A stretch of 61,142 bases of DNA from Nemertoderma westbladi. Taxonomy: Eukaryota > Animalia > Xenacoelomorpha. This document shows positions 111 through 50,499 of the stretch, one piece after another. A model generated the notes under the pieces. It was not told where the DNA came from, made no database searches, and saw only the letters and a list, made by a program, of their open reading frames with translations. The position numbers were made by a program, and so were the translations under genes. Within the stretch, counting starts at the first letter, position 1; each line of letters begins with the position of its first letter. Where the stretch lies: the NCBI GenBank assembly GCA_032718475.1, contig JAUCBJ010002484.1, positions 1 through 61,142 of the forward strand. Direction: 5' to 3'.

Positions 111-1381
111 CCTAAGGAGGTGAGGTCTCTATAGGGGTGCCGGTAACAGGCGGCGGCGGACTCGTGAGGGTCTGGGGGCACGTTAAATCGTTACTATAGT
201 GCAAGGGAGTTACTGAAGGCCCTCGTGTCTAGCGAACCATGAATCAACATGGTGCCGTGGTACCGTCTAGTCGGCCTGTTGCCGTACTGCCAGTCCTGTA
301 CACAGTAGGGGTGGTGGCATGGCGTGATCTGTGGTTTATGTGGTCTATGTGGTAGGTCTATGTGTGGTATGTATGAGTTGACCAGACTCTTTACTGTCTC
401 CAATCGGTTGCCAAAACGTGTCTTTTCCCAGGGTAGCACTATTGGAATGGAGGTGTTGCATCGGAATGGACAGGTTCCTGATGATTCTGTTGGTACTACT
501 ATTGGAATGGAGGTGGCACCCGGAATATCGGCTGCAAGGAGGGGTTGGTGTTGTAGTGTGGTCCGAGTGAATGATACTCTGGAATCTGTGGTTTGTGTGT
601 GTACGTGGTATACGTGAGTGTGTGTATGGCCACTGCGAGTGAGTGTGGGAAACCTTGCCGGTTGGTTCAGTCGCCGCCGGTTATTAGTAGGACCATATTT
701 TACTGCGCCCCAGCATACTTTGTGCACACAAAGTTATTTTACCCTGTCGGTAAAATAAAGTACTCTCGACTTTTATTAGTCGGTACAATTTTGTCCCCTC
801 TGATTTTGTCACCGATTTTGTCTTCCCCGATTATGTCCTCTGTGTGTGCGTGGTATGCGTCAGATTTTGTGTTTACCGTAGTGTACTTGATTTCGTGAAT
901 ATCTGTTGAGTACACGTGTACAGGACGGGTAAGTGGTTACTTGTTCCTAGCTTTCGAGCTAGTCAGTATTGTTTGTGGAACCGACTTCCCCTCAATACTG
1001 CCGGCGAGGCGGGTGAAAACGGTCAATATTCCACGTTGGGTAGCGCAAGCCCACATGGGACAAGACCGTCGGTTTGGCTCAAGGGTGACCTTGATGCTCG
1101 ATCGCTATCGACTGGTCCACCCGCCGGTTGACTCTCTGAGTTGGCTCAATGTACAGTCAGGCCACAGTAAGTTGACAGTGGGCGATCTTTGTAGTTTGGG
1201 TCGGCCACACACGACGAGCTGTGCCGGTGTGATCGGGGGATTGAAAAGTGAACCCGGGAAGCATCGGGCTACCCTCCGGCCCGGTCTGATAAAAACATCA
1301 GTCGGACTGGCCCCAAGGGTGGTGGGACAGCGTCCGCCTCGTGGGTGCGCCTCGGGGAGGAGCCCAGAAGGACGCAAGCGG
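111..1381. other. Unidentified GC-rich ~1.27 kb insert in gag of copy A
   Basis: Absent from copy B. CGGTG occurs at both junctions (106-110 and 1379-1383). Internal direct repeat actattggaatggaggt (~438 and ~498). No clear TIR or TG..CA ends. Confidence 0.75.
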
Positions 1382-4582: not shown

Positions 4583-4680
4583 GAAACCCACTGTCCGGGG
4601 GCAAAAAGCCTAGTAGGCAGCGACGCCCGCTTGCCTAAAATATTAATTTATATTGATATTAACAAACTCAGATAGCAGAT

Positions 4681-6659: not shown

Positions 6660-7900
6660 TGTAAAAGCTTCTGTGGGATATAACTGGCCCCTTTTGCTTC
6701 GCAATCCAGTTTCCCCACAGGCGCTGGAATACTCTAAAAAGGTTCTCTAACTGTATATATATTCCCCTCGCCCGCAAGGTACCTTTACAGGTGTTTTAAC
6801 GGACATAAAAATCATTCTGCTATATACGTGTTTTGGCGGACATGGTAAGGCAAAAAACCTGTAATGCACCAACTACCTTTCACAGCTTAGCCGTGATGAT
6901 TCATATTACGACATCTAACAGCTGGTTGCTGACATGGAAACAGCCATTGGACGCACGGTTCTTTGTTTGGCTTGAGCCAATCGGAGCGATTTTTCCTGTC
7001 GACGTGTAGCTTTTCAGTCGATCATAAGGAGAGTGTTCAGTCTTACTGTTTTTTCTTGATACTTTGTTGTTATTGCTGTCTAAGCCAGAAACACCGGCCT
7101 TTTAGTAAGAACTATAGTAAACTGCTTGAATTATCGAAAGTATAAACTGTTACCTAACTTAACACTAATTACCTTATACATACTCACTTAATTTAATTGC
7201 ATTAATCATATTGTTTTTACTGTTATTTTACCGTCAGTTATTAATTGTACCTATTTGTTGATGGAAATATTGCTATTTGGATAATACGGATAAATCACCC
7301 AATTCCCAATTTTCTTGATAACACTACAGGTTAGAGAGACCGGCTATACATAACAATTGCGATTTATATTAATGTGGTGTGTATTGAATCCAATGTTATT
7401 TAGCAGACCCTACGTGAGTCAATTACTGCTCTCTTTATGTGTGATCAAATGTACTGACTGTCGGCAGAATAGTGTGTATGATTGTGATTGGTAACAAAGT
7501 ATTTCCTAAAGAATACGCTTTATACTTTAATCATAAGCAGTATCGTTGCGTTTAGTATAAGTCTTAGTTCTGTTTAAATAGATAAAGCGCCACGTCCTAA
7601 AGGAACTGTTAATATTTCCCGAAAGCCAATAATATCTGTCAGAGATTAATTATTAACGATCTATCGAATAATACATTAGGTATACACTGCAACCTTACAC
7701 TGTAATAATACAATTCAAGCATCCGAATTCAGTCTCCCGGGTGTAGATCCATCGGGTGAATGATCGCGCATGGGCTGACTTCGGCTAATGTTTTGCGTAT
7801 TAGCATAAATTATTGTCGTATGCTAAAGTGGTTTTAATTAACTAAAAGACATATAAATTTTGGCAGGTTAAACTGCTAAAGGTCTTCAAAAGCGCGAACA
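6660..7900 (+). repeat. 3' LTR of copy A (1241 bp)
   Basis: TGTAAAAGC...GCGCGAACA, homologous to both copy B LTRs. CCAAT-like boxes at ~6945 and ~6977; TCAGT Inr-like motifs at ~7014 and ~7037. Confidence 0.93.
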
Positions 7901-8487
7901 AGCGCCTACTGGAGAAGACTGGGGGGTCAACGACCTCCGCCGCGTTTCAGGAGGGGCTCCTTGAACTCCGAAACAGCCCCAGGGAGAGTGGCTTCTCCCC
8001 AGCGGACATCATGTTCGGCCATCCTATGAGGTCGCGCGTTCCGGCCCACCACAGCGCCTTCGCTCGGACACTCCAGGAGACCCGGACGGAGCTAGACCGA
8101 GTGGCGCCGGCATTAAAATCAACCAGGACCGCCCAATATAACCGCGGAGCGAAGGCCCTGGAACCACTCGCGGTGGGCACCAGGGTCCGGGTTCAACACC
8201 CGACCAATAAACGGTGGGAGTGCACCGGCACCATCGTTGAGTCCGGTAAACACCAGAAGTATACTGTCCGGATGCCTTCCGGACGCACACTCATCCGGAA
8301 CCGACGCCTACTTATTCCGGACACCGCCCTCCAGGAGACACCCACGGGCCTACCAACCCCGGACGCGATACCCACAGCCCCCAAACTCGTACGCTGGCGT
8401 GAACCCATCATCGAAACTCAACAATTTGAGAAACTTTCAGTTTCCAAACACCCGAGGCGGGTACATCAGCCACCCGACCGACTCTGA
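7901..8487 (+). pseudogene. Ty3/Gypsy integrase C-terminal part, interrupted by copy A
   Basis: RLLEKTGG...FQEGLLELRNSPRESGFSPADIMFGHPMRSRVP...LEPLAVGTRVRVQ...W..TGTIV...YTV...GRTLIRNRRLL; followed by PPT gaaaggggg. Confidence 0.85.
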
Positions 8488-8553
8488 CATCTGAGTAAGA
8501 ACGAATTTTAGCTCGGCACCGCCTCAGGCGGCTAACCCGAGCTCGAAAGGGGG

Positions 8554-11334: not shown

Positions 11335-11841
11335 TTACCAACTGGGTTTCTTTATGGTACTTCCTTGCGACTGGTAATGATATTCGCGTTCCATCTCCTT
11401 GTAGTTCGGTATGAGATCGTCGCTGCAGGCCTCTCCCGGGAAGTAGGCGACACTACTCCACAGGCGATGGTACGGGTTCACGAGGAACTTCTCCTGAACG
11501 TCGTCCATCTTCATCGCGTTTACGAAGAAATAAGCCAGAAAGAACATAGTTCCCACTTTGAGAGTTCCCACGGGGTTTAGAAACGACCGTTCGTTAAAGT
11601 AGCGCAGTTTCAGGGCCCAGGGTTTGTTCATCCAGCCGTCGTAGAAACGCCCGAGAAAGTCTCCGATGCGGCTGCGACCCAACTGCCGCGGCTCGTGGGG
11701 GGAGAGCACTTGGACCTGGGCCCACCGGCGTCTCCAGTACCGGTGCTCCAGTTCCTCCTGACGCCATACTCCGCCGTCAGGCCAGCGGCCTGGTGCGGCT
11801 GGAGGTTTGTTGGGGTCGACGTATGGCTTGTGTTCGCCCAT
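11335..11841 (-). CDS. NDUFB6: NADH:ubiquinone oxidoreductase subunit B6 (B17)-like
   Basis: RRRWAQVQVLSPHEP resembles the NDUFB6 motif RRRWLKDQELSPREP. One TM segment (VGTMFFLAYFFV), then YFPGE (cf. IFPGD). GC-rich coding island with no introns in the CDS. Confidence 0.75.
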   Translation of the reverse strand: MGEHKPYVDPNKPPAAPGRWPDGGVWRQEELEHRYWRRRWAQVQVLSPHEPRQLGRSRIGDFLGRFYDGWMNKPWALKLRYFNERSFLNPVGTLKVGTMFFLAYFFVNAMKMDDVQEKFLVNPYHRLWSSVAYFPGEACSDDLIPNYKEMEREYHYQSQGSTIKKPSW

Positions 11842-14729
11842 TAGTTAGGTCTCTAGGAAGACGTTATGCCAGTATGTCCAGATGTTAGTCGTCCGTCCAG
11901 GTCGTCTGTAAAGCACTACAGTGCTACTGTACTAGACTAAGCCAGTAGGCAGGTACAGAGGTAGGATTTAGTAGGCCTAGGACTAGCGCAGTACAGCAGT
12001 ATGCAGTAGCGCCTAGCACCTGAGCACCTATGAGCTATGACCTAGGTCAGTAAATCTTAATCTTCTTCAAAATCGAGAAGGTACGTTGTGAGAACCCAGA
12101 CAGCATACTATACCATACAGCCGTAGCCGCATTGTTCGGGTGTTGATGTTATCTTACAACAGTACACACACAGTAGGCCCTACAACTGTGCAATACAACA
12201 TTAAAGTGATACCGATAATGGACGATGCAACCAACAGTTGGCGTACTGCTGTACTGGCGTAGGGCTACGTTTTTACGTTCTCTGGTTCTTGTTAGATGTA
12301 TACACACAGAATGACGTGTGAGGTACCTACTGTACCTCAGTACCTACAGTCAGACAGTAGGATATCCTATCTCTGTATCTTGATTAATCGTCCACTTTTT
12401 AGATAACGATAAAACAGGAAATTTGATTTTATCATAGTCTGACAGTAAAAGTTATACCCCCCACATAAGATTGGATATTGAGGTACTGTAGAGCAGAATG
12501 CGAGTTTAGCTCAGTTACTTCACCTCAATAAACTAAGAGTATTCAGTATTCATTTAAGAATATTTGCGTCCAATTTCCCCTGGAGAGGGATGAATTTTTA
12601 TTGCGATAAGTGTAAAACAATATCTGAAGTTTTGTTGCATAATCCAACAAGTTGAAGAATGAGTGTTCAAGTGGGAATTCGAATTCTGTAGTTCAGTTTC
12701 ATATGAATTGAAATCGTCGGAGGATTATCTGAGTGGAGAGTGTAATTGTAATAAAGTATAGGCTACTTTTCTGCTTTTTTATAGTAAAGTAAACAGTTAC
12801 CGTAAAGTTTAATAATTTGATATAAAGTAGCTTTACCGCTAATTAAATTATGATAATAAATTATGATAAATAATTTAGTAATTACTCGGGAAACCCGTCG
12901 ATATAGTGGAAGTACAGTAGGTGCATTCTTCTTGCAATGTCACCCATCATAACAACCAGTTACATTTAGACTGATAGACAAGAAATTGATTGGAGTGCAA
13001 GATAGTTTATTGTGGTGAAGCAAACGAGTTAAAATCGCATTCTGGTCTACCTCAGTAACTATCTAATTTTATGTTCATATCCCTCCAAGAATGTATTCGA
13101 TAAATGCGTCACCAAAATAATCTAAATATGATATTGCAGCAAAATTTACCTGAGTCCCCATTTTACCAACACACACTGGCAACCACTCCATGGATACTTA
13201 CTGTACTGTACATCACATCGTAATGTCCACACTGTGAATGTTAAGAACGTTTTTGTAAATATTATAGGGTGAATGAATCAACAAAAACATATTGCCCGAT
13301 TTTTTTTATTTTGGCGCAATGTTTTTATAATAGAACGATATACTTGACTGGGAATTGTGTCAAATGCTACGTCCACTCAACCCATGGATTTTATGCTTGT
13401 ATGGCTATAAATTTAAACGATATGTTTTGTGTGTGGTTGTCGGAAGCCATATTTTTCGGAAACCAATATCACACACTGTAAGTATGTAGTAGGACATACT
13501 GTAGTATTATGAATGACAACTTGTCGGTGAGATGGCTTGGAGTTCTTCTGAATGAGGGTCAATCTCGTTTGTTTATTGTATTGGAAATTGTTTAATGAAA
13601 ATATTTTTCATTACAATGAGATGAAGGGTGAATGACACCCGAGTCAGGGTGTCACTCTTGTAGGACGATCTAGTCAATCATTGTCCAAATTAAACTTTTC
13701 AATTATATTCTACTGTATCCTACCATACCTACCATATATCACTAATTTGACATCTTTAAAAAACATATGGTTTACGTTCGATATTTGTATTAACCAATAT
13801 CAAATATGTTAATTAAACACTTTCCTTATATATATAATTGAACGAGAACATACAGTAATTGTTACTGTAAATGCAACTTCTATCTTTACAAACACATTTT
13901 GCAAATCTGTGGCCATTGATTTGCGATTATTTAGGAGTGTGTTTTAAAATTAGTTTTTTTGTATCAACAAAAAAGCAAGTGATTGGCAAACATATCAATT
14001 ATATTACTTTGATTTACAGCTGTTATACCAATGATTAGTTTCATTGATTGTGTCACTTATAAAAATTTGTTACAAAATATATAAATTGTGGTTTTTCCAA
14101 GGTTGTTTTTTAGTTCAAGTGGTTATAGAATCGAAAAAATAATTATTAAATGTTCATCAGACTGGACTGCGACAATACTGTAATTACTAACTGAGCAAAC
14201 AGGTATGTGGACTTCCTACGGTAAGTAGCCCCTGGGCCTAGCCCCCTTAAAACAATCTCATTGTGATTTTAATCGCTATAATTATTCAGTATAAAATTAA
14301 CTCTCTTGCTAAGATTTATGGACTACCTGTACTGTGTTATATTTTTTCCGCGTTTATTTTCTCAACGCTTTCTGCCACATTTTCCTGGGCGTTTTCTGCG
14401 CTTTTTACGTGTGGTAACAAATTGTAGTAAAAATAACATGGCACAGAATTTTGCAGTATTAAATAGTATTAAAATAACGCGTCAACGAAAATGTTTAAGT
14501 CTATTATCCGCAGACAATAACTATAAACTACGTCAAGCGGTTTTGTTTTTATATTAAACGTAGGATATAAATTGACTGACTGATGCATTGCACGTGCTGT
14601 ACGACTGATGCATGCAAGTACTGTAGGCCTAAATTTATTATTTGGTCACTAAAATGGGAAAGCGGGGATAAACTTTCAGTTTATGGGCCATGAGTTGTCG
14701 GTAGGCTATACAATACAGGGTATTAGTAC

Positions 14730-18162: not shown

Positions 18163-18325
18163 TCGAACCTGGGACCTCGAGGTGGAAGCCGAGACAACAA
18201 CCACTAGGCCACAGGTTCTTGAGATATAGAGTATTAATTTCAAAGCCAACTACCATTATATTAGCCCCTGATTTTTATTATTGATAATAACAATGTGTTG
18301 GCAAGCTGCGTTTTTCGAGGGTTTT
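18163..18325 (-). repeat. Inverted partial copy of the tRNA-like 412-bp repeat
   Basis: Reverse complement of ~29765-29939, including the A-box and most of the B-box. Confidence 0.85.
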
Positions 18326-19556
18326 TGTTCGCGCTTTTGAAGACCTTTAGCAGTTTAACCTGCCAAAATTTATATGTCTTTTAGTTAATTAACACACCTT
18401 TAGCATACGACAATATTTTATGCTAATAAACAAAACATTAGCCGAAGCCAGCCCATGCGCGATCATTCACCCGATGGATCTACACCCGGGAGGCTGAATT
18501 CGGATGCTTAGATTTTATTATTGCAGTGTAAGGTTGCAGTGTAAGCCTACTGTATTATTCGATTGATCGCTAATATGTAATTTCTGACAGATATTATTAA
18601 CTTTCGGGAAATATTAACAGTTCCTTTAGGACGTGGCGCTCTATCTATTTAAACAGAGCTAGGACTTATACTAAACGCAACGATAAGGCTTATGATTAAA
18701 GTATAAGTCGCATTCTTTAGGAAATGCTTTGTTACCAGTCACATCACACTCACAATCATGCACACTATTCTGCCGACCGTCAGTATATTTGATCACACAT
18801 AAAGAGAACAGCAATTGACTCAGGTAGTGTCTACTAAATAACATTAGATTCAATACACACCACATTGATATAAATCGCAATTGTTATATATAGCCCGCCT
18901 CTCTAACCTGTAGTGTATCAAGAAAATTGGGAATTTGGGTGATTTATCCGTATTATCCAAAGAGCAATATTTCCATCAACAAATAGGTACAATTAATAAC
19001 TGACGGTAAAATAACAGTACAAACAATATGATTAGTGCAGTTAAATTAAGTGAGGTAACACCGCCGGTAACAGTTATACTTTCTATAATCTAAGCAGTTT
19101 TACTAGAGTTCTTAGAGCCGGTGTTTCTGGCTTAGACAGCAATAACAACAAAGTATCAAGTAAAAACAGTAAGACTGAACACTCTCCTTATGATCGGCCG
19201 AAAAGCTACACGTCGACAGGAAAAAACGCTCTGATTGGCTCAAGCCAAACAAAGAACCATGCATCCAATGGCTGTTTCCATGTCAGCAACCAGCTGTTAG
19301 ATGTCGTAATATGAATCATCACGGCTAAGCTGTGAAAGGTATTTGGTGCATTGCAGGTTTTTTGCCTTACCATGTCCGCTAAAACACGTATATAGCAGAA
19401 TGACTTTTATGTCCGTTAAAACACCTGTAACGGTACCTTGCGGGCGAGGGGAATATATATACAGTTAGAGAACCTTTTTAGAGTATTCCAGCGCCTGGGG
19501 GGAAACTGGATTGCGAAGCAAAAGGGGGCCAGTTATATCCCACAGAAGCTTTTACA
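18326..19556 (-). repeat. 3' LTR of copy B (1231 bp)
   Basis: TG..CA termini; appears identical to 28432-29662 by eye. Confidence 0.95.
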
Positions 19557-19634
19557 CCGCTCCCAGAAAATGGGATTTGAGTCTATAAATATACAAAAAT
19601 CACAGTTTCTAATATACGTAAATACTCTAAACAG

Positions 19635-21084
19635 TTAGTCTTTCTTGCGCGGACGGCGTTTACGCAGTTTTTTAAAGCTAGCAAGAGTCCTTTTCTCTTT
19701 GGGGCGAGCCACTTTACGAGGAGGGCTATAACTCCTGGGTGAAGGGTGCAATATGATTGCATCAGAAGGTATGGGATTGCGATCGGTATATCCGCCGGTC
19801 GAAGTACCGGGTTGATTGACATCAACGTCCGGGGAGAGGGGTCTAACGGCTTTGAGAGCTCGTTTCAAGACAGCCGCTCTTACGGGTCCTTTACGAGTGG
19901 TCTGAACGAGGGCCGTGGGTGGACCATAGGCAGTTAGAAACTTCCTTGGTTTAATGGTTCTTTCCAACTCGCGTTCGCGGGCTCTGTACTCGTAAGGCCG
20001 TCGATATACTTCCTGTAACTCAGGGTGTGAGTTGACAAATAAGTCTCCATAGGCCGGATCTTGACGGATAAAGTTTATTAAGTTATACGAATTGATGTCA
20101 CTCGGATTAATGCTCCTGAGGAATTTGCGTACATATTTGGTTGAAATACATTCTCCAACGCGCTTCAATAGTTCATAACTTGATAGGCGCGATTTCTGCT
20201 CGACGGAGGCAAACAAATATGGATGGAACGCATAAACTCCTTCGTAGGCGCGTCCAGGATAATAGCGATGGCGTGAATCACAATGTAAATCAGCGTTCGC
20301 TTCCCAAGCTCTGATATAACGTAGTACAATCATTTCATCTACGCTCTCTAAATCATGGTTAAAGGGACAATCAAAGCTGGCGTGTCCTTTTAATTGACAA
20401 TGATGGCATTGAGTCATAAATTGGGGGCAGACAGCAAAAATGTGCAAATTATTAAGCCGACAATATGCACAATAGATTTTCATCGACGGTTGCTCGTGGA
20501 AATAGGAACAAAGATCGTTGGTGTCCATAGACGTAATATGGTCTCTCGATACGCACAGCCGACAACGTTGTCTAGAAACATAATTGGCATGGCGATAATC
20601 ATACGCAGTAAGACACTGTGGACCTTGATACCATTCTAGGCTGTAATCGTAGTCGCTGTTCCGAGCGCGATAGGCTGAATCTCCTCAGATTCTAGGCATA
20701 TTGGTTCGTCTTCCCAGTCTGTTACGAATAGAATTTTCGTGATCTATTCTCGGTTTATCGTTACGACTCCGCTGGGTATGATATTTAAATAGAACCATTT
20801 CCCTTTAGGGTGTCTACATCGTCCGTATCATGTAAATCGATAGGATGGCCGGTAGTTAAGAAGTCCATATACGTACCATTACGATGCGTATAGCGAGCGG
20901 TTAATTTTCGATAGTCCAATTCACGCGTAAGTTGCTCTTGGGACATCGGCGGTTCGATATAACGACCATCGTCCTCCGTAATAGTCGGATCGGCTTCACC
21001 GCGTATCAAGCTATCCACAAACGCTTGTAAAGGTAGAGTATATCGCTCTCTAATACCAAGGTCATCTTCTATTAATTCCGTCAT
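19635..21084 (-). pseudogene. Orphan ORF of copy B: shared N-terminus, three zinc-knuckle-like motifs, basic C-tail; one frameshift and one stop
   Basis: 21084-20721 matches copy A 4681-5043 with a 1-nt insertion at ~20807. An in-frame TGA at 20687-20685 precedes CRLCVSRDH..C, CAYCRLNNLHIFAVC and CHHCQLKGHASFDC. Ends RKVARPKEKRTLASFKKLRKRRPRKKD*. Confidence 0.75.
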
Positions 21085-22702: not shown

Positions 22703-25700
22703 TTACGTTATGGAGTCCCTAGATATTTGTCGGATTAGGGAAGTGGTCGTAGGAAGAGTATCTTGCCTTCCATAGTTTCCGGACAGTTTTTGGTCTCTTT
22801 CCAGTAAACATAAACGACCAGCTGGGTGATTGGGTTGTCGTGTTACTTTCTCCGCTCCCTTGGCCTGTCTACTCTCCGCCGTGGTAAGATGAGGAGGCCA
22901 TTCATCTTCTTCTTTACTTAGGGAGTCGGGTCCACCTAACCAGCCGGGAGTATCTATCCGTTCTTGAGGAGTCGCTCCTCTGGAAGCGATGTCGGCTAGA
23001 TTAATCATCTCGGGGCGATGTCTCCATTGATCTTCATTGGAGTTAATATCGTCATTATCTGAGGAGTATGGTGTTCCCTCAGTTAGTTCGTCCACTTCAC
23101 TGCTCTCCACTTCCCAACCATTTATCTGGCATATTCTTTCTGGTGGTAGTCTCTCTTCGAGAGTTCTGCGGGAAGGGCCAGTAAAGTACCAACCTACTCT
23201 AGTTCTTACCGCATAGGTTTGTAGTGGCTGCGGTTGAGCAGGTCGTTTTTCCAATGTCTCGAGCGCCTCGTGCGCGTTTTGGCCGATAAGTATTTGCACT
23301 CCAGGATATTCTGTCTGGAATCGAGGTATTTTAAGTTGTTGGATGCTCTTGTCCTCGTTCCAGTTATAAGGCTCTACTTGGGTATTAGCGAAGTTCTTTA
23401 TAGCTACCATTTTTACTGACCTTATACTTTGTGCTCCTAATTTATCCTGGGGGGTGGACAACGCACCTACATAGTAATCTGCCGTTAGGGTAGATTTCCA
23501 AACCTGCATAATTCCTGACATATTCAATTTAGTCCGGAACTTGGGTTGTCCAGCAAAGATATCTTCGGCTAGTTCTTGATCGATGAATGTTCCTGTGCTG
23601 CCGGAGTCAAGTAGGGCGTTCACTATGTAACTCTTGTTGGGACCATGAACTCGAACTTGCACTACAGGAAATTCTCTTATTCCTATGTTGGAAGTTGGAA
23701 CTTTCCAAGATGGTTGTTTGTCAAAAGGAGTTGGAGTAAACTCGTCAGTGTCCTTTTCATCCGTAAGTGCTCGATACACTGTGGTATTTATTAGATAACA
23801 GGATTCGTTGGCATCGGAGAATTCGTCTGTATAGAATCCTTCCCACTCAGAACTTTGGTCAGTGTCGTTCACATCACTGAATTGGACATGTGATTTGGGC
23901 TCACTTACCTGACTCGGGCTGTTTCGTTCGAATTCACTTTGTAACAAGATGTGATGTTTCGCACCGCACTTTGCACACTTTATGTCGGAGTAACAGGTTC
24001 GCCGCTGGTGTCCGCGTCTGAGGCAATTATAGCATAACCGCTTGTCCCACACAACTGTACGTCTGTCTACAAGGGATTTCTTTAGGAATTCCGCACACGC
24101 ACTCAAACGGTGGGGCCCGTCGCACAGCGCACAGTTTGGTTTAATGTTACTCACTTTACCTTGGGTGACGTTATGCACTCTAGTTCTTTCTTCGGGCTTT
24201 CTTCCGTGTACTCTGTTAGGAAACAGAAGAGGAGTCTTATCAACCTGTTCTCTCCTGTCATGGGTTCGAGCTTTAGATTTACTTACGTTCTTTGAGGTCT
24301 TGTTAACATAGTAAAATTTCTCGGTGTCTTTCCCGCTGTCTTCTTCTTGAGAAGCTTGGCTTTCGCCGTCATCAGTATAACACACCGGTGTTACTCTTCT
24401 CCTAGAAACGGGTTTCTCACTTACCTTATTTTCCGGTGTTTTCTCTCTGGATTGCTTTAGGAGTTGTAATTTCACTTCGCCATCCAAGAATGACATGAGA
24501 TCAGCCATGGTAGGGTCTCGTTGTTGTTGTTCCATCGTATATAACACCTTCTTGTCCCAGCGTGTACCTACTCCACCCTTGGGCAAAGTAGATGCTAAGG
24601 CTCCTACAACCATAGAATTCTGGTATTCATGAGACTTACCTAACCAATCTAGTTGTCTACAGATCTCCTGAATCTCATCGGAAAACTCTATAATCCCGCT
24701 GCTAAGAAACTTTCGGGGGGCCATTAATTTCGCATATAAATACCTAGCTATGTTATTCCTATTACCATACCTGATGTTTAGTGTATCCCAAACTTGTCTT
24801 AATCCATCTGGATGTCCAATAAATTTTAAAGCCATTGACTTGGGAGGTCCTTCCAAGCACTCGATGAGGAATCTAAGTTTCTCTCCGTTGGATAACACAG
24901 AGTTCTGTATGTTATCTTTATAATATTCATTAAAAGGTAACCATTTCATCTCATCTCCATTGAACTTGACTATCTCTCCAACCTTTACCGCTTGACGGGC
25001 TTCGGTTCTAGCCATTTGACGAGTAAAACTTTCTTGGGCCATCGTGTTATTGAATATCGAGTTATCGGTATATAAATTTCTCGAATTATTATCAAGTCTA
25101 TTGGGAATGTCATTAACAACAGGCGTATAATCACCCTTAATAGGGTTTGCTATAGGAGTTTCTACTTCACTAGCAGTATAGATGCGTGTAGGCTCCACAC
25201 CTTGCGCATGTAATACTTCAGACCTAACAGGCTGACACACCGTTACAGGGGTTATTGGTATTCCCTTTTGTAGGTTGACTAATTTGTCGCATTCTAGTGC
25301 GATACTTTGCTGCACTTTTTGCAACTCTAACCTACTTTCCCTTACTGTTCCCTTGAGCTGCTGAACAGTCTCTTCCATTTCCCTGACCTGCTGAGAGGAG
25401 CGCAAACAGTGTTCCCTCAGCTGCTCGAGCAGGAGACCCATCTCCCGTCGTCCCTCAGCTACCCACTCAACCGCCGAAGCGGGAGTCGCCAACGTAGTAG
25501 CGGGCGAGCGAGAGACGACGGGCGATAAATTCTTGATACCTCGCTCGGCGTCCAGGACGGGTTCGGACTCGGGAACAGTCCTACTGGGCACAGGTAGTTT
25601 AGTACTGTGCAAAGGGAATCTAGAGGTGGTTTCTGGGAGCACAGGTGTCTCTAGCACTGAAGGGGTGTCTTCGAGAACAGGCCCAATTATTTCAGGCTCA

Positions 25701-26161
25701 TCTGTTATAATAGGGAGCCTTTTTATAGCAATAATTTGGTCTCTGGGTTCAAGATTACCTAAGTCTACACTATCCAGTTGCATTGTCACCTCAGGAGGTA
25801 ATGTCCGCTTGAGCATCCGTCTACGTCCGCTTGAACGAGATTTATTAACTCTACCTTCGGGATCTCTCATATCACCTTCATCGGAGGAGGCAAATCCCTG
25901 GCTTCTGGAGGTATATCGACTCAGGAACCGCATCTGAGCTGCAACCATAGCTGTCCTTTGTTTTTCCAGCTCTAGTTGGGTGGTCTCTTCAGATGCCTTC
26001 CGTTCTGCTTCTGCCACTGCCTCTGCCGCTGCTACTTTTCTTTCCGCTTCTGCTGTTGCCATTGCCTCTGCCACCTTCTTTTCAAGACACTGTCCAAGTC
26101 TAAGACTCATTCTAACACCTTCCAAAAGACTATCTGACAGTGCCCGTTTTGTGTCAGACAT
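22703..26161 (-). CDS. BEL/Pao Gag-protease polyprotein (1152 aa) lacking RT, RNase H and integrase
   Basis: N-terminal coiled coil; DUF1759-type capsid (KFNGD..KWLPF...LSNGEKLRFL..CLEG...L..RYG); three zinc knuckles; LLDSGS protease; Pao linker remnant (ADIASRG..WLGGP..L..EDEWP). Confidence 0.93.
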   Translation of the reverse strand: MSDTKRALSDSLLEGVRMSLRLGQCLEKKVAEAMATAEAERKVAAAEAVAEAERKASEETTQLELEKQRTAMVAAQMRFLSRYTSRSQGFASSDEGDMRDPEGRVNKSRSSGRRRMLKRTLPPEVTMQLDSVDLGNLEPRDQIIAIKRLPIITDEPEIIGPVLEDTPSVLETPVLPETTSRFPLHSTKLPVPSRTVPESEPVLDAERGIKNLSPVVSRSPATTLATPASAVEWVAEGRREMGLLLEQLREHCLRSSQQVREMEETVQQLKGTVRESRLELQKVQQSIALECDKLVNLQKGIPITPVTVCQPVRSEVLHAQGVEPTRIYTASEVETPIANPIKGDYTPVVNDIPNRLDNNSRNLYTDNSIFNNTMAQESFTRQMARTEARQAVKVGEIVKFNGDEMKWLPFNEYYKDNIQNSVLSNGEKLRFLIECLEGPPKSMALKFIGHPDGLRQVWDTLNIRYGNRNNIARYLYAKLMAPRKFLSSGIIEFSDEIQEICRQLDWLGKSHEYQNSMVVGALASTLPKGGVGTRWDKKVLYTMEQQQRDPTMADLMSFLDGEVKLQLLKQSREKTPENKVSEKPVSRRRVTPVCYTDDGESQASQEEDSGKDTEKFYYVNKTSKNVSKSKARTHDRREQVDKTPLLFPNRVHGRKPEERTRVHNVTQGKVSNIKPNCALCDGPHRLSACAEFLKKSLVDRRTVVWDKRLCYNCLRRGHQRRTCYSDIKCAKCGAKHHILLQSEFERNSPSQVSEPKSHVQFSDVNDTDQSSEWEGFYTDEFSDANESCYLINTTVYRALTDEKDTDEFTPTPFDKQPSWKVPTSNIGIREFPVVQVRVHGPNKSYIVNALLDSGSTGTFIDQELAEDIFAGQPKFRTKLNMSGIMQVWKSTLTADYYVGALSTPQDKLGAQSIRSVKMVAIKNFANTQVEPYNWNEDKSIQQLKIPRFQTEYPGVQILIGQNAHEALETLEKRPAQPQPLQTYAVRTRVGWYFTGPSRRTLEERLPPERICQINGWEVESSEVDELTEGTPYSSDNDDINSNEDQWRHRPEMINLADIASRGATPQERIDTPGWLGGPDSLSKEEDEWPPHLTTAESRQAKGAEKVTRQPNHPAGRLCLLERDQKLSGNYGRQDTLPTTTSLIRQISRDSIT

Positions 26162-26261
26162 TTTTTGTTTGTACAGTTGAATGCCTACTGCTATATTACA
26201 GTTAAAGCAAGTCTAGTAATTCAGTATCACTGCTAGCCTAGTAATCAATTACCGATACTGC

Positions 26262-26546: not shown

Positions 26547-27547
26547 GTCAATTATTTTAGAATAATTGAATTTCTGAATATTTTAGGGTTACTTGGTTAC
26601 TTTAACTTACTTTATTACCGTTATTTAAGCAGTAGTCCAACTGATATTGAGACCTAGTTGTTGTATGGCAGGCCTACTATTTATAAATCGTTTGAGTTGA
26701 TTTATAATATTTATATACCCGTTTAAAATGGGTTTTTGTCAATATTTGAAATAAATGTTATTATTTCTGGGGGAGTCACTACACAGAAGCTGAACGCCTC
26801 TCAGTGAAGTGCTATTTATTTGACACTAAAACTGATAATTCTAATTTACCTAAGTTACTTAATTACTACAAATTACTTACGATACGGGTGAGATTAATTC
26901 TCTAATTAAACACAACAAAATATTACGTACGAAATTTTTAGGGTAATTTTACAGGAAGTCTACAAACCAGTCCAACAAAGGGTTAGATTTCTGGTTATTA
27001 CAAAGGACAGGGTTCTACGGTATTTAAATAATAAGTAGTAGTAAATATATTGTACTGTCCAGATGGGAAAATACCACCGCCTGACGACCTATAACCGTAT
27101 CGCTATAGGTACTACGTTATGTATCACGGATTGTTCCTACCCAGAAGCTAATAGAGCTAACGAATGTGCCTATCAACCACTTTACAACACAAATATACTG
27201 CCTACACTAATTACTTCGGAAAGCACTGTACACTAAACCCTAAATTAGGTACAAGTACCGGTATAACAAATAATCAGTAGTTAAATATACTTGAACAGTT
27301 AAAAGAACCACGGCATCTGCTGGAGTGACCGAAGCACAAAATCTCCAGTCTTTACCTACGCCGAGCAGCCCTGATGTAGTACCGGGGTTAGTTTAACTAT
27401 AACGGTATGTATAACAAGCACAATTACTGTAGGAATAAACTTGGGGACATGAATGTTGCGAATAATCGCATAAACTCTGAATAATAAATATTACGCTACC
27501 CGTACAGAATACTGAAACAAATACAAACCAAACGCTGGCAAACTACT

Positions 27548-27993
27548 ATCAAGCCTAAACAAACTACAGTATGTGCAGATTCTGAAACTGTTAGTTAGTA
27601 TGCGTTCTAACACGGTAGTACGACTTACTCTTTAAGAGGGGATTGACCTTACAGCTTATGGCTGCCCCAACTTACTAACGGCACTTTATCAGACCAACTC
27701 TACACACGCAGCAATCCCTTCAGACCTAAAAATAGCTAGACAACAATCCAGCCTACAAATATTTGAGTAATAACTATTACGGTACCTGAACAGACCACAC
27801 AAACAAACACAGGCTAAAACACTGAAAGACTACAATCAAGCCTAAATAAACTACAGTATGTGCAGATTCTGAAACTGTTAGTTAGTATGCGTTCTAACAC
27901 GGTAGTACGACTTATTCTTTAAGAGGGGATTGACCTTCAGCATATGGCTGCCCCAACTTACTAACGGCACTTTATCAGACCAACTCTACACAC
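27548..27993. repeat. ~160-bp direct duplication in the copy B leader
   Basis: atcaagcctaaa.aaactacagtatgtgcagattctg...accaactctacacac at ~27548 and ~27835. Confidence 0.85.
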
Positions 27994-28305
27994 ACCGCAA
28001 TCTCTCCAAACTCAACAACAGTCAGACAGCAGCTCAGCCTACAATTATCTGAACAATCTGAGCAGGGTCATACGCCTTCTGCTCAATATTAGCCTACTAG
28101 TAAATAAAACCGACAGAAATAAGTAAACTATACAAAAGAATGAGGGGTGATCAATCCCTATTCCCCTGGCAGCCTACAATATACAATAGATCACAATCGA
28201 AATAATACTAAATGTACTTGTACAGCAGTACCGGTACCGGTGATGACAGTTAGGCCTACTGACCTACAGAAGCACCGGTTCAGTTTTACCAGTCACTATG
28301 GTATT

Positions 28306-28431
28306 TTGCAACCTTATTGCCTACTGCAATAAGATTATAAACTGTTACTGTTCGACAGAACAGTATTAAACTGTATTTAATGCCTACACTTGCAACCTTA
28401 TTGCCTACTGCAATAAGATTATAACTGTTAC
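28306..28431 (-). promoter_or_regulatory. Non-canonical primer-binding region, tandemly duplicated and complementary to the LTR
   Basis: No TGG follows the 5' LTR. 28420-28431 is the inverted repeat of 29173-29184, and 28382-28416 pairs with 28624-28652. The unit is duplicated at ~28306-28354. Confidence 0.6.
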
Positions 28432-29662
28432 TGTTCGCGCTTTTGAAGACCTTTAGCAGTTTAACCTGCCAAAATTTATATGTCTTTTAGTTAATTAACA
28501 CACCTTTAGCATACGACAATATTTTATGCTAATAAACAAAACATTAGCCGAAGCCAGCCCATGCGCGATCATTCACCCGATGGATCTACACCCGGGAGGC
28601 TGAATTCGGATGCTTAGATTTTATTATTGCAGTGTAAGGTTGCAGTGTAAGCCTACTGTATTATTCGATTGATCGCTAATATGTAATTTCTGACAGATAT
28701 TATTAACTTTCGGGAAATATTAACAGTTCCTTTAGGACGTGGCGCTCTATCTATTTAAACAGAGCTAGGACTTATACTAAACGCAACGATAAGGCTTATG
28801 ATTAAAGTATAAGTCGCATTCTTTAGGAAATGCTTTGTTACCAGTCACATCACACTCACAATCATGCACACTATTCTGCCGACCGTCAGTATATTTGATC
28901 ACACATAAAGAGAACAGCAATTGACTCAGGTAGTGTCTACTAAATAACATTAGATTCAATACACACCACATTGATATAAATCGCAATTGTTATATATAGC
29001 CCGCCTCTCTAACCTGTAGTGTATCAAGAAAATTGGGAATTTGGGTGATTTATCCGTATTATCCAAAGAGCAATATTTCCATCAACAAATAGGTACAATT
29101 AATAACTGACGGTAAAATAACAGTACAAACAATATGATTAGTGCAGTTAAATTAAGTGAGGTAACACCGCCGGTAACAGTTATACTTTCTATAATCTAAG
29201 CAGTTTTACTAGAGTTCTTAGAGCCGGTGTTTCTGGCTTAGACAGCAATAACAACAAAGTATCAAGTAAAAACAGTAAGACTGAACACTCTCCTTATGAT
29301 CGGCCGAAAAGCTACACGTCGACAGGAAAAAACGCTCTGATTGGCTCAAGCCAAACAAAGAACCATGCATCCAATGGCTGTTTCCATGTCAGCAACCAGC
29401 TGTTAGATGTCGTAATATGAATCATCACGGCTAAGCTGTGAAAGGTATTTGGTGCATTGCAGGTTTTTTGCCTTACCATGTCCGCTAAAACACGTATATA
29501 GCAGAATGACTTTTATGTCCGTTAAAACACCTGTAACGGTACCTTGCGGGCGAGGGGAATATATATACAGTTAGAGAACCTTTTTAGAGTATTCCAGCGC
29601 CTGGGGGGAAACTGGATTGCGAAGCAAAAGGGGGCCAGTTATATCCCACAGAAGCTTTTACA
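28432..29662 (-). repeat. 5' LTR of copy B (1231 bp)
   Basis: Direct repeat of 18326-19556. Confidence 0.95.
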
Positions 29663-29679
29663 GTTTTTGTTACAAAAAA

Positions 29680-30572
29680 AATTGCGCCAATAAAAGTTAT
29701 TTTCGGTAAAATAAACTTATCATTCGAGGTTAAGACCCCTAGATCCCTTCCTATAATAAATGTATCATAACAAAAATCCTCGACAAACAAAGCTTGCCAA
29801 CAATAATAATAAACTATCAATAATAAAAATCAGGGGCTAATAAAATGGCAGCTGGCTTTGAAATTAATACTCCATATCTCAAGAACCTGTGGCCTAGTGG
29901 TTGTTGTCTCGGCTTCCACCTCGAGGTCCCAGGTTCGAATCCGACACCACGCTGAAGAGACCCGGTATGGTCGAAACGCGTACGTGGTTTGGAGAGATAT
30001 GAGATATTAATTTCCATAAAAATTACGCGATTCCTAAATTTGTACACTACCCGGTTAAAAAGTACGCATGTGATGGGATTAGTCCTACAATTGCGCCAAT
30101 AAAAGATAAGTTATTTTCGGTAAAATAAACTTATCATTCGAGGTTAAGACCCCTAGATCTCTTCCTATAAAATGTATAATAACAAAAATCCTCGACAAAC
30201 AAAGCTTGCCAACAATAATAATAAACTATCAATAATAAAAATCAGGGGCTAATAAAATGGCAGCTGGCTTTGAAATTAATACTCCATATCTCAAGAACCT
30301 GTGGCCTAGTGGTTGTTGTCTCGGCTTCCACCTCGAGGTCCCAGGTTCGAATCCGACACCACGCTGAAGAGACCCAGTATGGTCGAAACGCGTACGTGGT
30401 TTGGAGAGATATGAGATATTAATTTCCATAAAAATTACGCGATTCCTAAATTTGTACACTACCCGGTTAAAAAGTACGCATGTGATGGGATTAGTCCTAC
30501 AATTGCGCCAATAAAAGATAAGTTATTTTCGGTAAAATAAACTTATCATTTAAGTTTAAGACCCCTAGATCC
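29680..30572 (+). repeat. ~412-bp tandem repeat (about 2.2 units) containing a tRNA/SINE-like Pol III head
   Basis: Units start at 29680, 30089 and 30501. A-box TGGCCTAGTGG (29890, 30302), B-box GGTTCGAATCC (29932, 30344), CTTCCAC anticodon-like loop. Confidence 0.85.
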
Positions 30573-30743
30573 ATTAACTTGTTTAATATTTCGAAAATCA
30601 CTCGGTATAATATAATTTACAAGTACGATACAAGGGGTGGGGTATTATTGGCGTTGCAACTAATTTATTAAGTTTTTATTATAAATTGTAGTAAGCTTGG
30701 GTAGTGAGGCACCATATAAGGATTGTTTATTATTACCCTTTAG

Positions 30744-44324: not shown

Positions 44325-47260
44325 GTAATGAATGAACTAAAGGAAAGGTCTAGAACAGCAAAGTTGTGGCTTTCTTATATTGAGTGTGTTAACACCTTGA
44401 AGTTGTTCATTCGTGCAGAGAGAACCAGAGATTGGAATACGCATGGACTGATCTTATCATCGAACAAGTCATGATGAGATCTGTCAAGAGCAGAGGAGGT
44501 CTTACTAGAGGTCGAGGGATTACAGAATCTGTTAGATTGATGTGGGTATACAGTATCCATGAATGTGCCCAAGTGCATTATGCCATGACCACACTGACAG
44601 AACATTCTCTCAGGACCAGTAAACAGCATGTGGAGCTTACTACTACTACTACTACTACTAGGATCGGCATGCTGCATTGCAGCTGCCTTTTTAAGAATGC
44701 TGTGCCGGCTTGTCAACAAAATTGCACCGCCACAACTCCCTATCACCCATGACATTTGCTAGATCATCCGCATCTTTAAGGCCAGTGTCCTTTAAGATGC
44801 GTCTCAAGAAAGTCATGGGCTGTCCACCATGCTTATTCACTCCATGAGGCTGCCAAAGTACAAGATTATGCACTGGCTGGTCCTCACGGCGAAAGCAATG
44901 TCCTGCAAAGCGGAGGCGATTTTGTTCTAGTGTCAAGCTTGGGGGAACCAATGAGACACCTCCAATTTTATATAGTGTCTGGTTGGAGATGTGTGCAGTA
45001 CTTGACACAATTAACCCGGCGTAGCATTCTTGTGAATGTGCCATCCAGAGATTTGGTGTCCTCAGCAGTTAGAGCCCAGCATGGACTCCCGTAGAGGAGT
45101 ACTGGAACTACTGCTGCTCTAAATAATCGGACCTTAAGTTTCCGATTAATTCTCGGTGACTTCCAAATCCTGGAAAGCCTATTCAAGGCTGCCCATGCCT
45201 TTCCGTTACGTATTCGAAGGTCCTCACCTGACTTCTGGATCCATGATCCCAGGTAACAGAAGTCGTCCACATGCTCAAGCATACTATCCTTTGAGCTTAT
45301 GCTCATCCGATCAGAGACTTGCTGAGGACTTTCAAAGTTAACTGTCAGAATTTTGGTCTTTCTGGAGTTAATAAAAAGACCAACACTAGAAGCAGCATGT
45401 TCTAATGAGCTGAGGAGCCGTTGGGCTCCCTCTAATGATTCTGAGAGTACTCCTAAGTCATCAGCAAAGTCTAGATCAATTAGGTACTTGGCAGGATTTC
45501 CTCGACTTCTGGAGCCAGTAGGTGGAGTTATCATCACCCCATCATTATTATGATGATCTAAGGACATGCGTAGAACATAGTCAACCACCATAATGAACAA
45601 GAATGGTGCAAGTGTGTCTCCTTGGAGGACGCCCCATAACACTTCAAATGGTTCTGTGTCACCGTCAACAGTAGACAAAATGTTGTCGAACCATCGTATA
45701 CTGATCTGATTGCTGCAATAATTTCATCAGGAATCCCATATAATGAAAGTATGCTGAACATACGTGACCAAGAGACTGAATCAAAGGCCTTGAAGAAGTC
45801 AACAAAGATAACAGCCAGATGCCTGTCTTTCTTTTTTGGAGCTTACTATTGCAAGAAGAACAAGGGATATTGACGACATGGTTGAAATTATCAATTGGAT
45901 ATCCCAAAATAACCCATTTGACTCAAAACCTCCCTGGGTTGCGATCATTATCATCATGGTAATGGGATGCGAGAAATGCATAAAGATTGAAGGACAAGCT
46001 ATTCATATTGATCCAAATATGGTCCAAATATGATTCACAACTTATCATTGTTATGGAAAGATTTTCCAACTTCAGTATTCAAGGATTCTCAGATGCGAAA
46101 AACAAACAAAGCGGTTCTAGCACATCACCTTACTGTTGGTATTCCAGAAACCCGTTCACCAGAACATGCTACACATGTTTTAGATGGTGGTGCTCTACTT
46201 CAAAGGGTATGGTGGATACCAAAAGCTATGTACAGAGATATAGGTGCTCAATATCTGAAATATATTGAAGCAAATTATGGCCCATCCAACATTGTCTTTG
46301 ATGGATACAATGCATGGATCAATAAAAGACCCAGAACATCAGCGAAGGTAAGGAAAACATCTGCCAACATTCAAATTTGCGATGACTTGCAAGTAGCCCT
46401 CAAGTAGTCCCTCAAAATGTGTTTTTGTACAACGAGAAGAATAAAGATCAGTTGATAAAGATGTTGTCTCGTCTCTTTACAGCAGATGGACACTCAGTAG
46501 TTCAAAGTGAAGGCGATGCAGACACCGAGATTGTCTTTGAAGCACTGCGATTGGCTGCCAAAGGAGACACTGTGATTCTGGTAGCTGATGACACCGATAT
46601 TCTTGTTATTTTGTTATTGGATGTGACTCAACTTCTGCAATATTTGGGCATGGTAAATGTGAGCTAATTAAACTCATTTACAGATCACAAGAGATCCTTC
46701 GCTGTTGTGAAACGATAAATAATGAAAATTCTTCACAAACCGATGTTGCGAGTGCAGGGCAAAATATATTTAATAAAATGTATTCCGGAAAACCTGGGGA
46801 TTCACTTGATACACTCAGATATATCCTTTATATGGAGTTTGCTGCGACATCAACCAAGAAGTTGCAACCTGATCGACTTCTCCCTAATGAACGAACAGCA
46901 TTATTCCACTCCCTTCGAGTTCACCTGCAAGTTGTTGTATGGAAGAGTCTTGGTAAGTGTCTACTGGATCCTTACCAGTGGGGGTGGGAGGTGCAGAATA
47001 ATAAGTACATACCTGTAATGACGGATTTAGATCCTGCTCCGGAGGAAATTCTGCATTTTATAAGATGTAAGTGTAAGATCTCATCGAGAAATTGCTGTGG
47101 CACAAAGCAATGTTCTTGTCGAATACACGGGCTGACATGTGTAACTGCTTGCAGTGACTGCCGAGGAACTGATTGCAGTAATATAATCCAAGTCGTGCTA
47201 GACCAAGAAGGAGAAGCGGACGAATATGAAGATGGTACAACGTTATATAGTTCTGGATAG
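44325..47260 (+). pseudogene. Academ (AcademX-like) transposase remnant: XPG/PIN-like nuclease plus Cys-rich C-terminus
   Basis: SRTAKLWLSYI..LFIRAERT.DW; WTDLIIEQVMMRSVKSRGGLTRGRG; VLDGGALL..VFDGY; EGDADT..DDTDIL; HSLRVHLQ..WGW..PAP..CKC..CSC..GLTC..C..C.G..C.N. Interrupted by an RTE. Confidence 0.7.
44643..45836 (-). mobile_element. 5'-truncated RTE-clade LINE inserted in the Academ ORF
   Basis: FVDFFKAFDS, GVLQGDTLAPFLF, LDFADD; (TAG)n tail; 12-bp TSD tggagcttacta at 44631-44642 and 45837-45848. Confidence 0.92.
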
Positions 47261-47741: not shown

Positions 47742-49689
47742 TTATTATTAAACTTTATGTTATATATAGATAACAAAGACAATGCACGCAGGTGTTGATA
47801 ACCATATTGTAGTGCACGCCTGTGATATAACTGACCGTTACTTAATGTAGGCCTACTGTAAGCAAAACAACGTATTATAGGCTACACATAATATTATATA
47901 ATACATAAATTGATAATAATATAATGTTATGGCAGAAAATAAACTAACTAAATTAAACTGATAATAGTGACACTACAATATACCTATTTACTTAATCAGT
48001 ATGGTTAACAGTACCAAAACTAATATTGCTTGGATTCCGCTACGATATTTATAAACAACTGTTAAACTCCCGACAACGTGAACAGTGACAACATGTCATG
48101 TATGTACATGGGTTATCGCAGTCAAATATGGGCATCCTTACTCGACTGTAATGCAAAAACAGTTGACGTTTAAATACTGAAAGCTTCTTGATTTTCCGGA
48201 TTGCAAGAGGTAGATTATTCCACTCCTTCCCAATCCGGTTACAGAAAGAAGCATAAAACGTTTCAGTATGGCAAAGATTACCGAATATTCTAGGATCCAC
48301 GCCCCAGCTACGTTCTCTAATAGCAGGTAGTGCAACGTCAAAGCGATTATAGACAACACCATGATAAAATAGGAGATCTAAGATCTCTTTCCGATAGCAA
48401 ATTGGAGTTAGATTTAAATTGCCTAACCTCTCGCTGTATGAGAGATCATGCTGATACCCACAAAGGCTGCGAGTTACACGTCGCTGAACCCCTTCCAGTC
48501 GAAGGCGGTTATGTTTGATGTGTGTGTCCCACACTGGACTGGCGTACTCCAATTTACTACGGCACAACGAAACAAATAACTTTTTCATTAGTTCACCATG
48601 TGAACTATCACACACTCTCCTTATCATTAACCAAGTTTTATTCGTCCTACCAACAACGTTATCAATGTGCGCTGACCAATATAGGTTCCCGGTGATTTTC
48701 AAACCTAGATCGGTGAAACTAGTTACACGACCAAGTGGGTGGCCCCTCAAATTATAAAAATATAAATTTAGGAATTTCTTCCTAGTTATAGTTAGCACCT
48801 TGCATTTCTTAGTGTTAAAACTCATACCCCATGTCGGCCATGTCTCGCTCCAAACAAGTAATTTATCTAAGCTGCCTTGTAGGTCCCAGCAGTCTGTAAC
48901 AGATTTTATTTCAGAGAAAAGCTTAGAGTCATCAGCATAAAGAGAAACCGTGTGGTCTCTTTCTGCCACACGCGGCATGTCATTGATATACATACTGAAC
49001 AAAATGGGCCCCAACAAGGACCCCTGTGGGACCCCTGACCGCACATCTAGCCAATAGGAAACTGAGCCATTGTGTGACACACATTGCCTACGGTTTGATA
49101 AATATGATTCCATCAATTTCAGTATTGCACCACTAAAACCAAAGCTTTTTAGCTTATGAATCAATAACGTATGGGGTACACTATCAAATGCCTTGGAAAA
49201 ATCCAAGTACAGCACATCTACCTGCCCACCATTATCTAAAATCTTACCAATAGTATGATATGCACCAATGAGCTGGGTCACTGTTGAGCGACCAGCACAG
49301 AAACCATGTTGACTAAGAGAGAACAGTGGTTTAATCTGATATATGATGTGATCACATAAACATCGTTCATATACTTTAGATATAACTGACAACAAAGACA
49401 CTGGCCTATAGTTGTCAGCAATATTACGCTCTAGCTTCTTATATACGGGAATAACCACTGCACTCTTCCAAGCCTCAGGAAAAATACCTGTCGCCAGTGA
49501 CAAATTAAATATATTGCACAATGACTCACTTAATTCATCTGCACACTGAATTAGAACAATGGGTGGAATTGCATCAAAGCCTGCAGCCTTGTTGCTATTT
49601 AAAGATCGTAAAATCTTGAGCACATGTTGTGGAGAAAAGCATGTGCTTTCCAGATTACAATTCCGCCAACTAAAAATGTATGGTAGCAC
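47742..49689 (-). mobile_element. 5'-truncated CR1/L2-group LINE with open RT ORF (48049-~49689)
   Basis: NYRPVSLL, YLDFSKAFDSV, GVPQGSLLGP, YADD. ATAT at both junctions. The flanks rejoin into a repeat unit like the one at 49790-49850. Confidence 0.88.
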
Positions 49690-50499
49690 ATATGGCGAAT
49701 CACCGGTTGCCATAGTAACTGAGACTTGAAAATATTATCAATAAATTTTCCATAGTCGATATAGTGGGGTTAGGAGTTGGTTCCGTTGCCTCAAGATGGC
49801 CAAATCGATGGTTGATATGGTGAATCTACCAGTTGCCATGGTAACTGAGAATTGAAAATATGTTCAATGAATTCTCCGTTGGCGATATAGTGGGGGTAGG
49901 AGCTAGCCCAGTTGCTTTAAATGTAATTATATCTATTCTTATGTCGGTTGCTATGGAAACGGGATTTGTGAGAGTTGCCCACCCTATTGAAGAGAGGACT
50001 TTTCAGAGTAGTTGTGTAACTTGTTTTTTTTCGTCCACACAGACAAACACCAGAAATAACGTTACCATTAATTAATGATTCTTAACAATCAGCAGCTTTG
50101 GAAACCTCTAGAATCAGAATTACCAAACCAAAGGCAAAACTTACAGATTAAAATTTTTACTACTTGTACTTTTCGTTCTGGTACACCAGAATGGTACTAA
50201 AAATGATGTTTGCATTTTCCAGAAATATTTGTATCTAGTTTCATTGTGATCAGCTATCTCGAAAACCCATATACATTCAGAATTATCAAAACAAACGTAA
50301 CAATTTTAGTTTAGCATTTTTATGTACTTGTACTTTTTCGTCCTGTGGGAGCAAGATAGCACCAAATATATTTTTAACAAGTTTTATCATGACGATTTCT
50401 TTGAGATGCTATGATGGCTTAACAAATAATATTTTTGGCACCACCATGTAATCCACAATTTGCATGCTGTAACTCAGAAGTTCATTAAGAATGCCATTT

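Follow-up and report, generated by a model that had tools for sequence, protein, structure and literature searches.

Self-priming of reverse transcription by an element's own RNA has been described for Tf1, Tj1, and their relatives (PMC4600332, PMC7175516, PMC2864245, and PMC5443660, in their accessible sections). The PBS of Tf1 pairs with the initial 11 bases, which RNase H separates from base 12 onward by a cut after base 11 (accessible sections of PMC7175516 and PMC4600332). An earlier note on the DNA analyzed here took Tf1, of the Gypsy group, as the precedent for self-priming; that precedent stands but is not confined to the Tf1 group, as self-priming has also been predicted in the plant Ty1/copia TAR lineage (Houba and Osr-1) and in Tcn1, with a TAR rule that asks for an LTR complement of 10 or more bases whose start lies 0 to 5 bases past the 5' LTR (PMC6317226, accessible sections). 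For BEL/Pao, the ICTV profile of the Belpaoviridae names host tRNA as the primer, with tRNA-Arg or tRNA-Gly binding a site of 18 nt (PMC8742986). Fungal GalEa elements and bivalve TRIMs are described as having no PBS after the 5' LTR (PMC5445492 and PMC6934838, in the sections available). We found no report of self-priming in BEL/Pao in the literature searched, which took in few subscription papers or Repbase reports. The accessible parts of PMC3601003, PMC6934838, PMC5445492, PMC8220671, and PMC2656454 do not link the two, and in term counts the words PBS, tRNA, and priming were absent from both PMC3118150 and PMC554778, as was the word primer from PMC3118150.

We analyzed a 61,142-nt stretch of DNA (the window) by self-comparison and delimited one full-length element, copy B (29662-18326, minus strand, 11,337 bp). 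Copy B has the TG...CA LTR ends, target-site duplication, and PPT that are features of BEL/Pao, although its PPT is short (Table 1). The identity of its LTRs suggests a recent insertion, repeat collapse during assembly being an alternative source of that identity. A second copy, copy A, lies on the plus strand, is 91-94% identical to copy B, and ends at 7900, with its 5' end beyond the window. The gag region of copy A is broken by a ~1.27-kb insertion (window 111-1380, plus strand), and an extra 656-codon ORF with no Pfam match precedes its 3' LTR (4663-6633, plus strand). In copy B, the shared start of this frame is interrupted and is followed by a different, CCHC-rich frame of 349 codons, for which Pfam likewise gave no match. 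The long noncoding leader of copy B contains a ~286-bp tandem duplication (27478-28052, 86% identical).

Table 1. Features of copies A and B, in window coordinates
Feature	Position	Strand	Remarks
5' LTR of copy B, TGT...ACA	28432..29662	-	1231 bp
3' LTR of copy B	18326..19556	-	1231/1231 bases same as 5' LTR
Target-site duplication AAAAC, 5 bp	29663..29667	-	partner 18321-18325
Candidate PPT, short purine-rich tract abutting 3' LTR	19557..19564	-	
TATA-like box, LTR 96-104, candidate promoter upstream of primer segment	29559..29567	-	motif scan, in A and B
Initiator-like TCAGTC, LTR 379-384	29279..29284	-	~100 nt upstream of primer segment; motif scan, in A and B
Candidate self-primer segment, LTR 479-490	29173..29184	-	exact complement of outer site
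LTR arm (1011-1039) of predicted 29-bp LTR/leader helix	28624..28652	-	end overlaps AATAAA 28625-28620
Primer-binding position, outer site, 12 nt	28420..28431	-	no TGG; directly after LTR
Leader arm (+16 to +50) of predicted helix	28382..28416	-	part can form local hairpin of ~11 bp
Inner duplicate: last 6 LTR bases, copy-A-type primer site (28336-28348), part of helix arm	28306..28354	-	
1169-codon ORF: Gag (DUF1759, zinc knuckles), protease (LDSG), RNase H C-terminal remnant	22703..26212	-	
Extra 349-codon ORF with CCHC-like knuckles	19635..20684	-	weak zf-CCHC leads, best scores 0.84-0.85
3' LTR of copy A	6660..7900	+	~91% identical to copy B LTR
Copy A primer segment with extra base	7141-7153	+	inside copy A 3' LTR

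The assignment of the element to BEL/Pao, first made from the letters alone, was borne out by its proteins. The 1169-codon ORF matched DUF1759 in Pfam (E = 8.9e-14), and most of its 90 homologs, whose identity to it is low throughout, carry Pao-family domains (PF05380, PF03564, and PF18701 among the homolog domains). A remnant of ~50 residues joined to the protease (~22880-23041) aligned with the RNase H of six full-length homologs at 33-45% identity. In the same alignment, RT, integrase, and most of RNase H were absent from both copies. Copy B lacks the complete PR-RT-RH-IN order of a BEL/Pao pol and is a deletion derivative, not an autonomous member. Because RT and integrase are missing from A and B alike, the family has spread in cut-down form, with RT needed in trans. 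The Ty3/gypsy protein ancestry of the Tf1/sushi chromoviruses was not found, the proteins being those of BEL/Pao.

Several other features were observed in the surrounding window. Two type I hammerhead matches (29946-29988 and 30358-30400, plus strand; 24.7 and 26.5 bits, E = 0.026 and 0.0065, below the Rfam gathering score) sit in 412-bp tandem units at ~29680-30575, just outside the 5' LTR, with a partial inverted copy at 18163-18329; the element probably integrated into these units, which would be a repeat of the retrozyme-like kind. GC-richer ORFs at 7901-8490 (plus strand) directly follow the 3' LTR of copy A and resemble, by eye, the integrase end of another retrotransposon, with no Pfam match for 7846-8484. 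An NDUFB6-like frame of 169 codons without a stop (11335-11844, minus strand; Pfam E = 2.2e-6) represents a host gene or a processed copy and suggests an animal host. Other mobile elements are represented by two RVT_1 frames and one DDE_Tnp_1_7 frame among 44968-45723, 48049-49734, and 58501-59049 (all minus strand).

Directly after the 5' LTR of copy B, the first bases contain no TGG, in contrast to BEL/Pao elements with their 18-nt PBS, which matches the 3' end of a tRNA. Instead, GTAACAGTTATA (28431-28420) abuts the LTR end at 28432 with zero spacer. Both the missing TGG and the exact complementarity of this 12-mer to 29173-29184 had been claimed before, and both were confirmed on coordinates and sequence. 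A 12-base complement in the LTR has a chance expectation of 2.2e-4 by composition. Exact LTR complements of this length occur at 2 of 8,845 internal-region start positions, the outer site being one, and none of 200 random controls (offsets 0-3) matched it. With 12 nt of own-LTR complement at offset 0, the site falls within the self-priming rule of at least 10 nt located 0 to 5 nt after the LTR. The primer of copy B is contiguous rather than assembled by joining LTR sequence at a GT-AG junction: no LTR junction gave 10 or more bases, and the best split match was 9 nt, which 7 of 200 controls also reached. Rfam returned no match inside the element. The primer segment lies between a strong donor at LTR 187 and a stretch, ending at LTR 557, that resembles an acceptor by eye and contains branch-point-like words (29476 to 29106, minus strand), so that splicing could remove the primer from the RNA.

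A second, inner copy of the site lies farther into the leader. The earlier note described the LTR end and PBS as a duplicated unit; the duplication is present (28306-28354 versus 28390-28437, identical at 48 of 49 positions), but only the last 6 LTR bases are repeated in it. As had also been proposed, the inner site carries the extra base seen in the copy A LTR (7141-7153), and each site fits one LTR form: the outer site makes 12 contiguous pairs with the B LTR versus 9 with the A LTR, whereas the inner site makes 13 with A versus 9 with B. The claimed covariation of this indel holds in that sense, but it is a covariation between two different copies, because the primer site belonging to copy A falls beyond the window. 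Within copy B, the outer site fits the minority form present in the element's LTRs, and the common form persists in the inner duplicate. Such a one-base match between site and LTR would be expected if the primer were copied into the site in every cycle; it is a single event.

To place this difference among other copies, we turned to sequencing runs. Nine were listed, none recorded as RNA, and six contain all or part of the stretch examined. Contigs from four runs of four studies were compared over copy A 7070-7215, and the best-covering run may be the source sample itself. In three well-covered runs (X4 has no cover over the segment), no substitution or indel was listed at 2% or more across 7070-7158, in contigs short enough that variants can hide and that site and LTR are not joined on one molecule. 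All 29 listed changes fell at 7159-7181, right after the primer segment, and the expected strand-jump position coincides with this variable stretch. None of the listed loose contig ends (19 of 27) lay inside the primer segment; such ends marked a variable stretch near 7103-7120. Since no variants were listed over the copy A segment, the commoner form is that of A, in which the extra base is present. The B form was found in one contig each in X4 and X6, and the extra-base site was found in a different leader at 12 loose ends in X1 and in one X6 contig. Two X6 contig variants, which are outer or inner sites, make only 9 to 11 contiguous pairs with the A form. In X3 and X6, a joint going back 65 bases suggests that the tandem leader units vary.

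Beyond the 12-mer, the leader can pair extensively with the LTR. The three further helices pointed out previously (28407-28416 with 28624-28633, 28391-28400 with 28635-28644, and 28382-28390 with 28644-28652, the last including one G-U) are present and total 29 pairs, because the last two share base 28644. The predicted stability of the combined helix was -49 kcal/mol, matched by none of 200 single-base shuffles, and mean pair probabilities of the first two helices were 0.93-0.97 in 18 of 18 ViennaRNA folds. Like the Tf1-type stem between the 3' part of the LTR and the leader, the predicted helix encloses the primer-binding position; Lin and Levin are said to have found in 1998 that Tf1 self-priming requires a supporting stem. 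The helix is predicted to leave the outer site single-stranded in its loop: opening the site there would cost 0.3 kcal/mol, as it is mostly unpaired, opening the primer segment would cost 2.3 to 3.4 kcal/mol, and the duplex between them would yield -17.4 kcal/mol. The outer primer duplex had a probability of 0.00-0.01 in free folds, a value that is uninformative because the duplex crosses the long helix as a pseudoknot, which ViennaRNA cannot model. With one construct, the free fold favored the inner site at both temperatures (~0.9). The LTR arm overlaps the LTR's only AATAAA; therefore, the region called "U5-like" in the earlier note may be R, and polyadenylation control may be an additional or an alternative function of the helix.

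To compare copy B with other members of the superfamily, we aligned five homologs and obtained 78 BEL/Pao loci from metagenome contigs (drawn from the best 80 of at least 558 confirmed stretches). We screened 49 of these; the remaining 29 were excluded because the match started far into pol or little upstream sequence was present. Nine of the 49 loci, belonging to six families (L006; L047; L053; L056, L061, and L067; L066; L075 and L078), have a site of 11 to 15 bases that is complementary to a predicted GT-AG splice junction in their own LTR. These sites lie 0 to 3 bases after CA or TA, upstream of gag, and the match runs across an intron of 76 to 423 bases in the locus's own upstream or downstream repeat. 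The nine loci came from 9,011 candidate positions, compared with 3 hits at 28,116 coding positions in the control. In L053 (whose LTRs are only 71% alike), L061, L066, and L067, the site is 0 to 3 bases from an LTR end set independently by repeat comparison, and none of 200 controls scored as high as L061 or L066. L075 and L078 have no clean CA end, and L006, L047, and L056 have no independently set LTR end. The ACA-then-GT boundary of copy B is shared by L006, L056, L061, and L067.

TGG-type, tRNA-like sites were found in 6 of the 49 loci, three at defined ends (L026, L032, and L054) and three classed by eye (L044, L072, and L073), the sequence pattern being too loose by itself. The other 34 loci fall in neither class. 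Complements of at least 11 bases after CA were considered as contiguous self-primers and rejected: they were hairpins or palindromes, or else ordinary matches that did not lie at a defined LTR end. No contiguous-type relative was thus established among the 49. The 22-base LTR-end pattern of copy B had no match in the metagenome contigs, and no relatives were found among viral contigs. In a FastTree phylogeny (1,676 columns; stop-free frames of 38 loci with at least 1,200 residues plus two shorter labeled loci), the six tRNA-type loci grouped in one clade with three unlabeled loci (support, 1.0), and the junction-type loci were scattered across the rest of the tree. The copy B protein sat on a long branch beside L007 (support, 0.70) and was not placed with the splice-built families. 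A significant LTR/leader duplex was present in copy B, L006, and tRNA-type L026 and absent from L053, L056, L066, L067, L078, L054, and L032. The long helix is not diagnostic of self-priming, because a significant one is absent from five of six tested self-priming-type relatives and present in one of three tRNA-type loci. The contiguous primer of copy B is likely an intron-less version of the splice-built primer of related families.

Taken together, these data support the interpretation that the earlier note had reached from one locus, with six other BEL/Pao families giving independent comparative support: Tf1-like self-priming by the element's own RNA, for which RT would come in trans, accounts for the findings best, and we consider it probable. 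In this model, Pol II transcription would start at or upstream of LTR 479, with the TATA-like and initiator-like words of Table 1 as candidate signals. Given an upstream start, the primer would be capped and long, unlike a free 11-mer. The leader is predicted to fold back on LTR 1011-1039, leaving the site single-stranded in the loop, and LTR 479-490 to pair with the outer site across the helix. If the element follows Tf1, a trans-acting RNase H would then cleave immediately 3' of base 490, RT from an autonomous relative would extend the resulting 3'-OH into the LTR end, and the strong-stop DNA would jump to the 3' LTR near position 491. Plus-strand synthesis would then copy the primer and rewrite the used outer site to match the element's own LTR, and the unused inner duplicate would retain the commoner form.

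The strongest competing explanation, which we nevertheless regard as unlikely, is that the LTR segment is a TATA box or otherwise part of U3 and is missing from the RNA 5' end; the site would then pair with the 3' LTR copy, circularizing the RNA or priming from a second packaged RNA. The A form of the segment starts with TATAAA and could therefore be a TATA box upstream of the transcript, and an initiator-like word follows 27 nt downstream in B and 45 nt downstream in A, a difference in spacing that itself speaks against this explanation. A TATA box would likewise be conserved, with variation near the start site after it. However, the B form has lost the sixth TATA base even though copy B has identical LTRs, the complement extends over 7 bases past the TATA word, and a better TATA-like box is present at LTR 96-104 in both copies. 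In the relatives, moreover, the matched segment is a splice junction and not a TATA word.

Priming by a host RNA (an internal tRNA fragment, a mitochondrial tRNA, or another small RNA), with the LTR match secondary, seems to us more doubtful still. Six bases of the primer segment presumably read like a tRNA-Asn anticodon loop. A spliced-leader RNA, said to prime tunicate Tor elements, was not found in that role in the literature searched. Host priming would fit the ICTV profile, in which the family is tRNA primed (PMC8742986), and half-tRNA primers occur in Ty1/copia (PMC6317226, accessible sections). In copy B, the primer cannot be a mature tRNA 3' end because there is no TGG, and no tRNA genes were found within the window. 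A host primer also leaves unexplained why the LTR complement is exact and conserved, why site and LTR agree in the one-base difference, and why six families each have a different site fitting their own LTR.

Of lower probability again is the proposal that priming takes another route and that the pairings are relics or act as an RNA switch with a regulatory role, for example in packaging or in hiding the 5' polyadenylation signal. The overlap of the long helix with the only AATAAA, the alternative local hairpin in the leader, and the significant duplex in tRNA-type L026 would all suit such a role. This proposal accounts for the long helix but not for a 12-mer at zero spacing, where minus-strand synthesis must start, and it is compatible with self-priming if regulation is the helix's second role. 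Chance complementarity or an assembly artifact is highly improbable: the DNA is AT rich, repeat collapse can yield identical LTRs, and no contig spans the element, but the expectation is that given above for a chance match, both segment forms occur in other runs, and the signature recurs in other families.

Extending the self-priming reading beyond this element, we give about an even chance to a broader hypothesis: that much of BEL/Pao replicates without tRNA by means of a self-primer in the 5' RNA, which a spliced LTR intron builds in many families and which is ready-made in the copy B family, probably after intron loss. With every round of replication the primer would rewrite its own site, and priming by tRNA may be confined to some BEL/Pao lineages. 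Of these findings, the splice-built relatives are more surprising than the contiguous primer. The ICTV profile calls BEL/Pao replication poorly understood and treats the group as tRNA primed (PMC8742986). Since self-priming has already been predicted in Ty1/copia, BEL/Pao would, if the self-priming reading is correct, be the third LTR superfamily with this mechanism and the first in which splicing may build the primer. Self-priming would also account for BEL/Pao copies without a detectable PBS and would be expected to let elements evade control exerted through the supply of tRNA or through its fragments.

Compared with known systems, copy B resembles Tf1 and Tf2 of Schizosaccharomyces pombe, Tj1 of S. 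japonicus, and the Tf1/sushi and Tcn1 elements in having no tRNA site and an 11- to 12-base site complementary to its own LTR. Unlike those Ty3/gypsy elements, it belongs to the BEL/Pao superfamily and is non-autonomous. Its LTR is 1231 bp, with the primer segment 741 bases from the LTR end. The primer of Tf1 consists of the RNA's first bases, and that of copy B may lie farther in. The helix arm of copy B lies ~190 nt from the LTR end, its site is duplicated, and its relatives appear to build the primer by splicing, all of which differ from Tf1. The copia TAR lineage follows the same sequence rule as copy B but consists of plant copia elements. With GalEa and the bivalve TRIMs, copy B shares the lack of a tRNA site after the 5' LTR; those elements, unlike copy B, carry a local hairpin site, and for GalEa the search for an LTR complement was negative. 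With the Belpaoviridae (Semotivirus), it shares a DUF1759 Gag, zinc knuckles, a protease, a Pao-type RNase H remnant, and TG...CA LTRs, but it lacks a tRNA site, RT, and integrase and is 11.3 kb long. The element, as we read it, works like Tf1 yet stands outside the Tf1/sushi group, and it is a BEL/Pao derivative without the tRNA site that is a stated feature of its own family.
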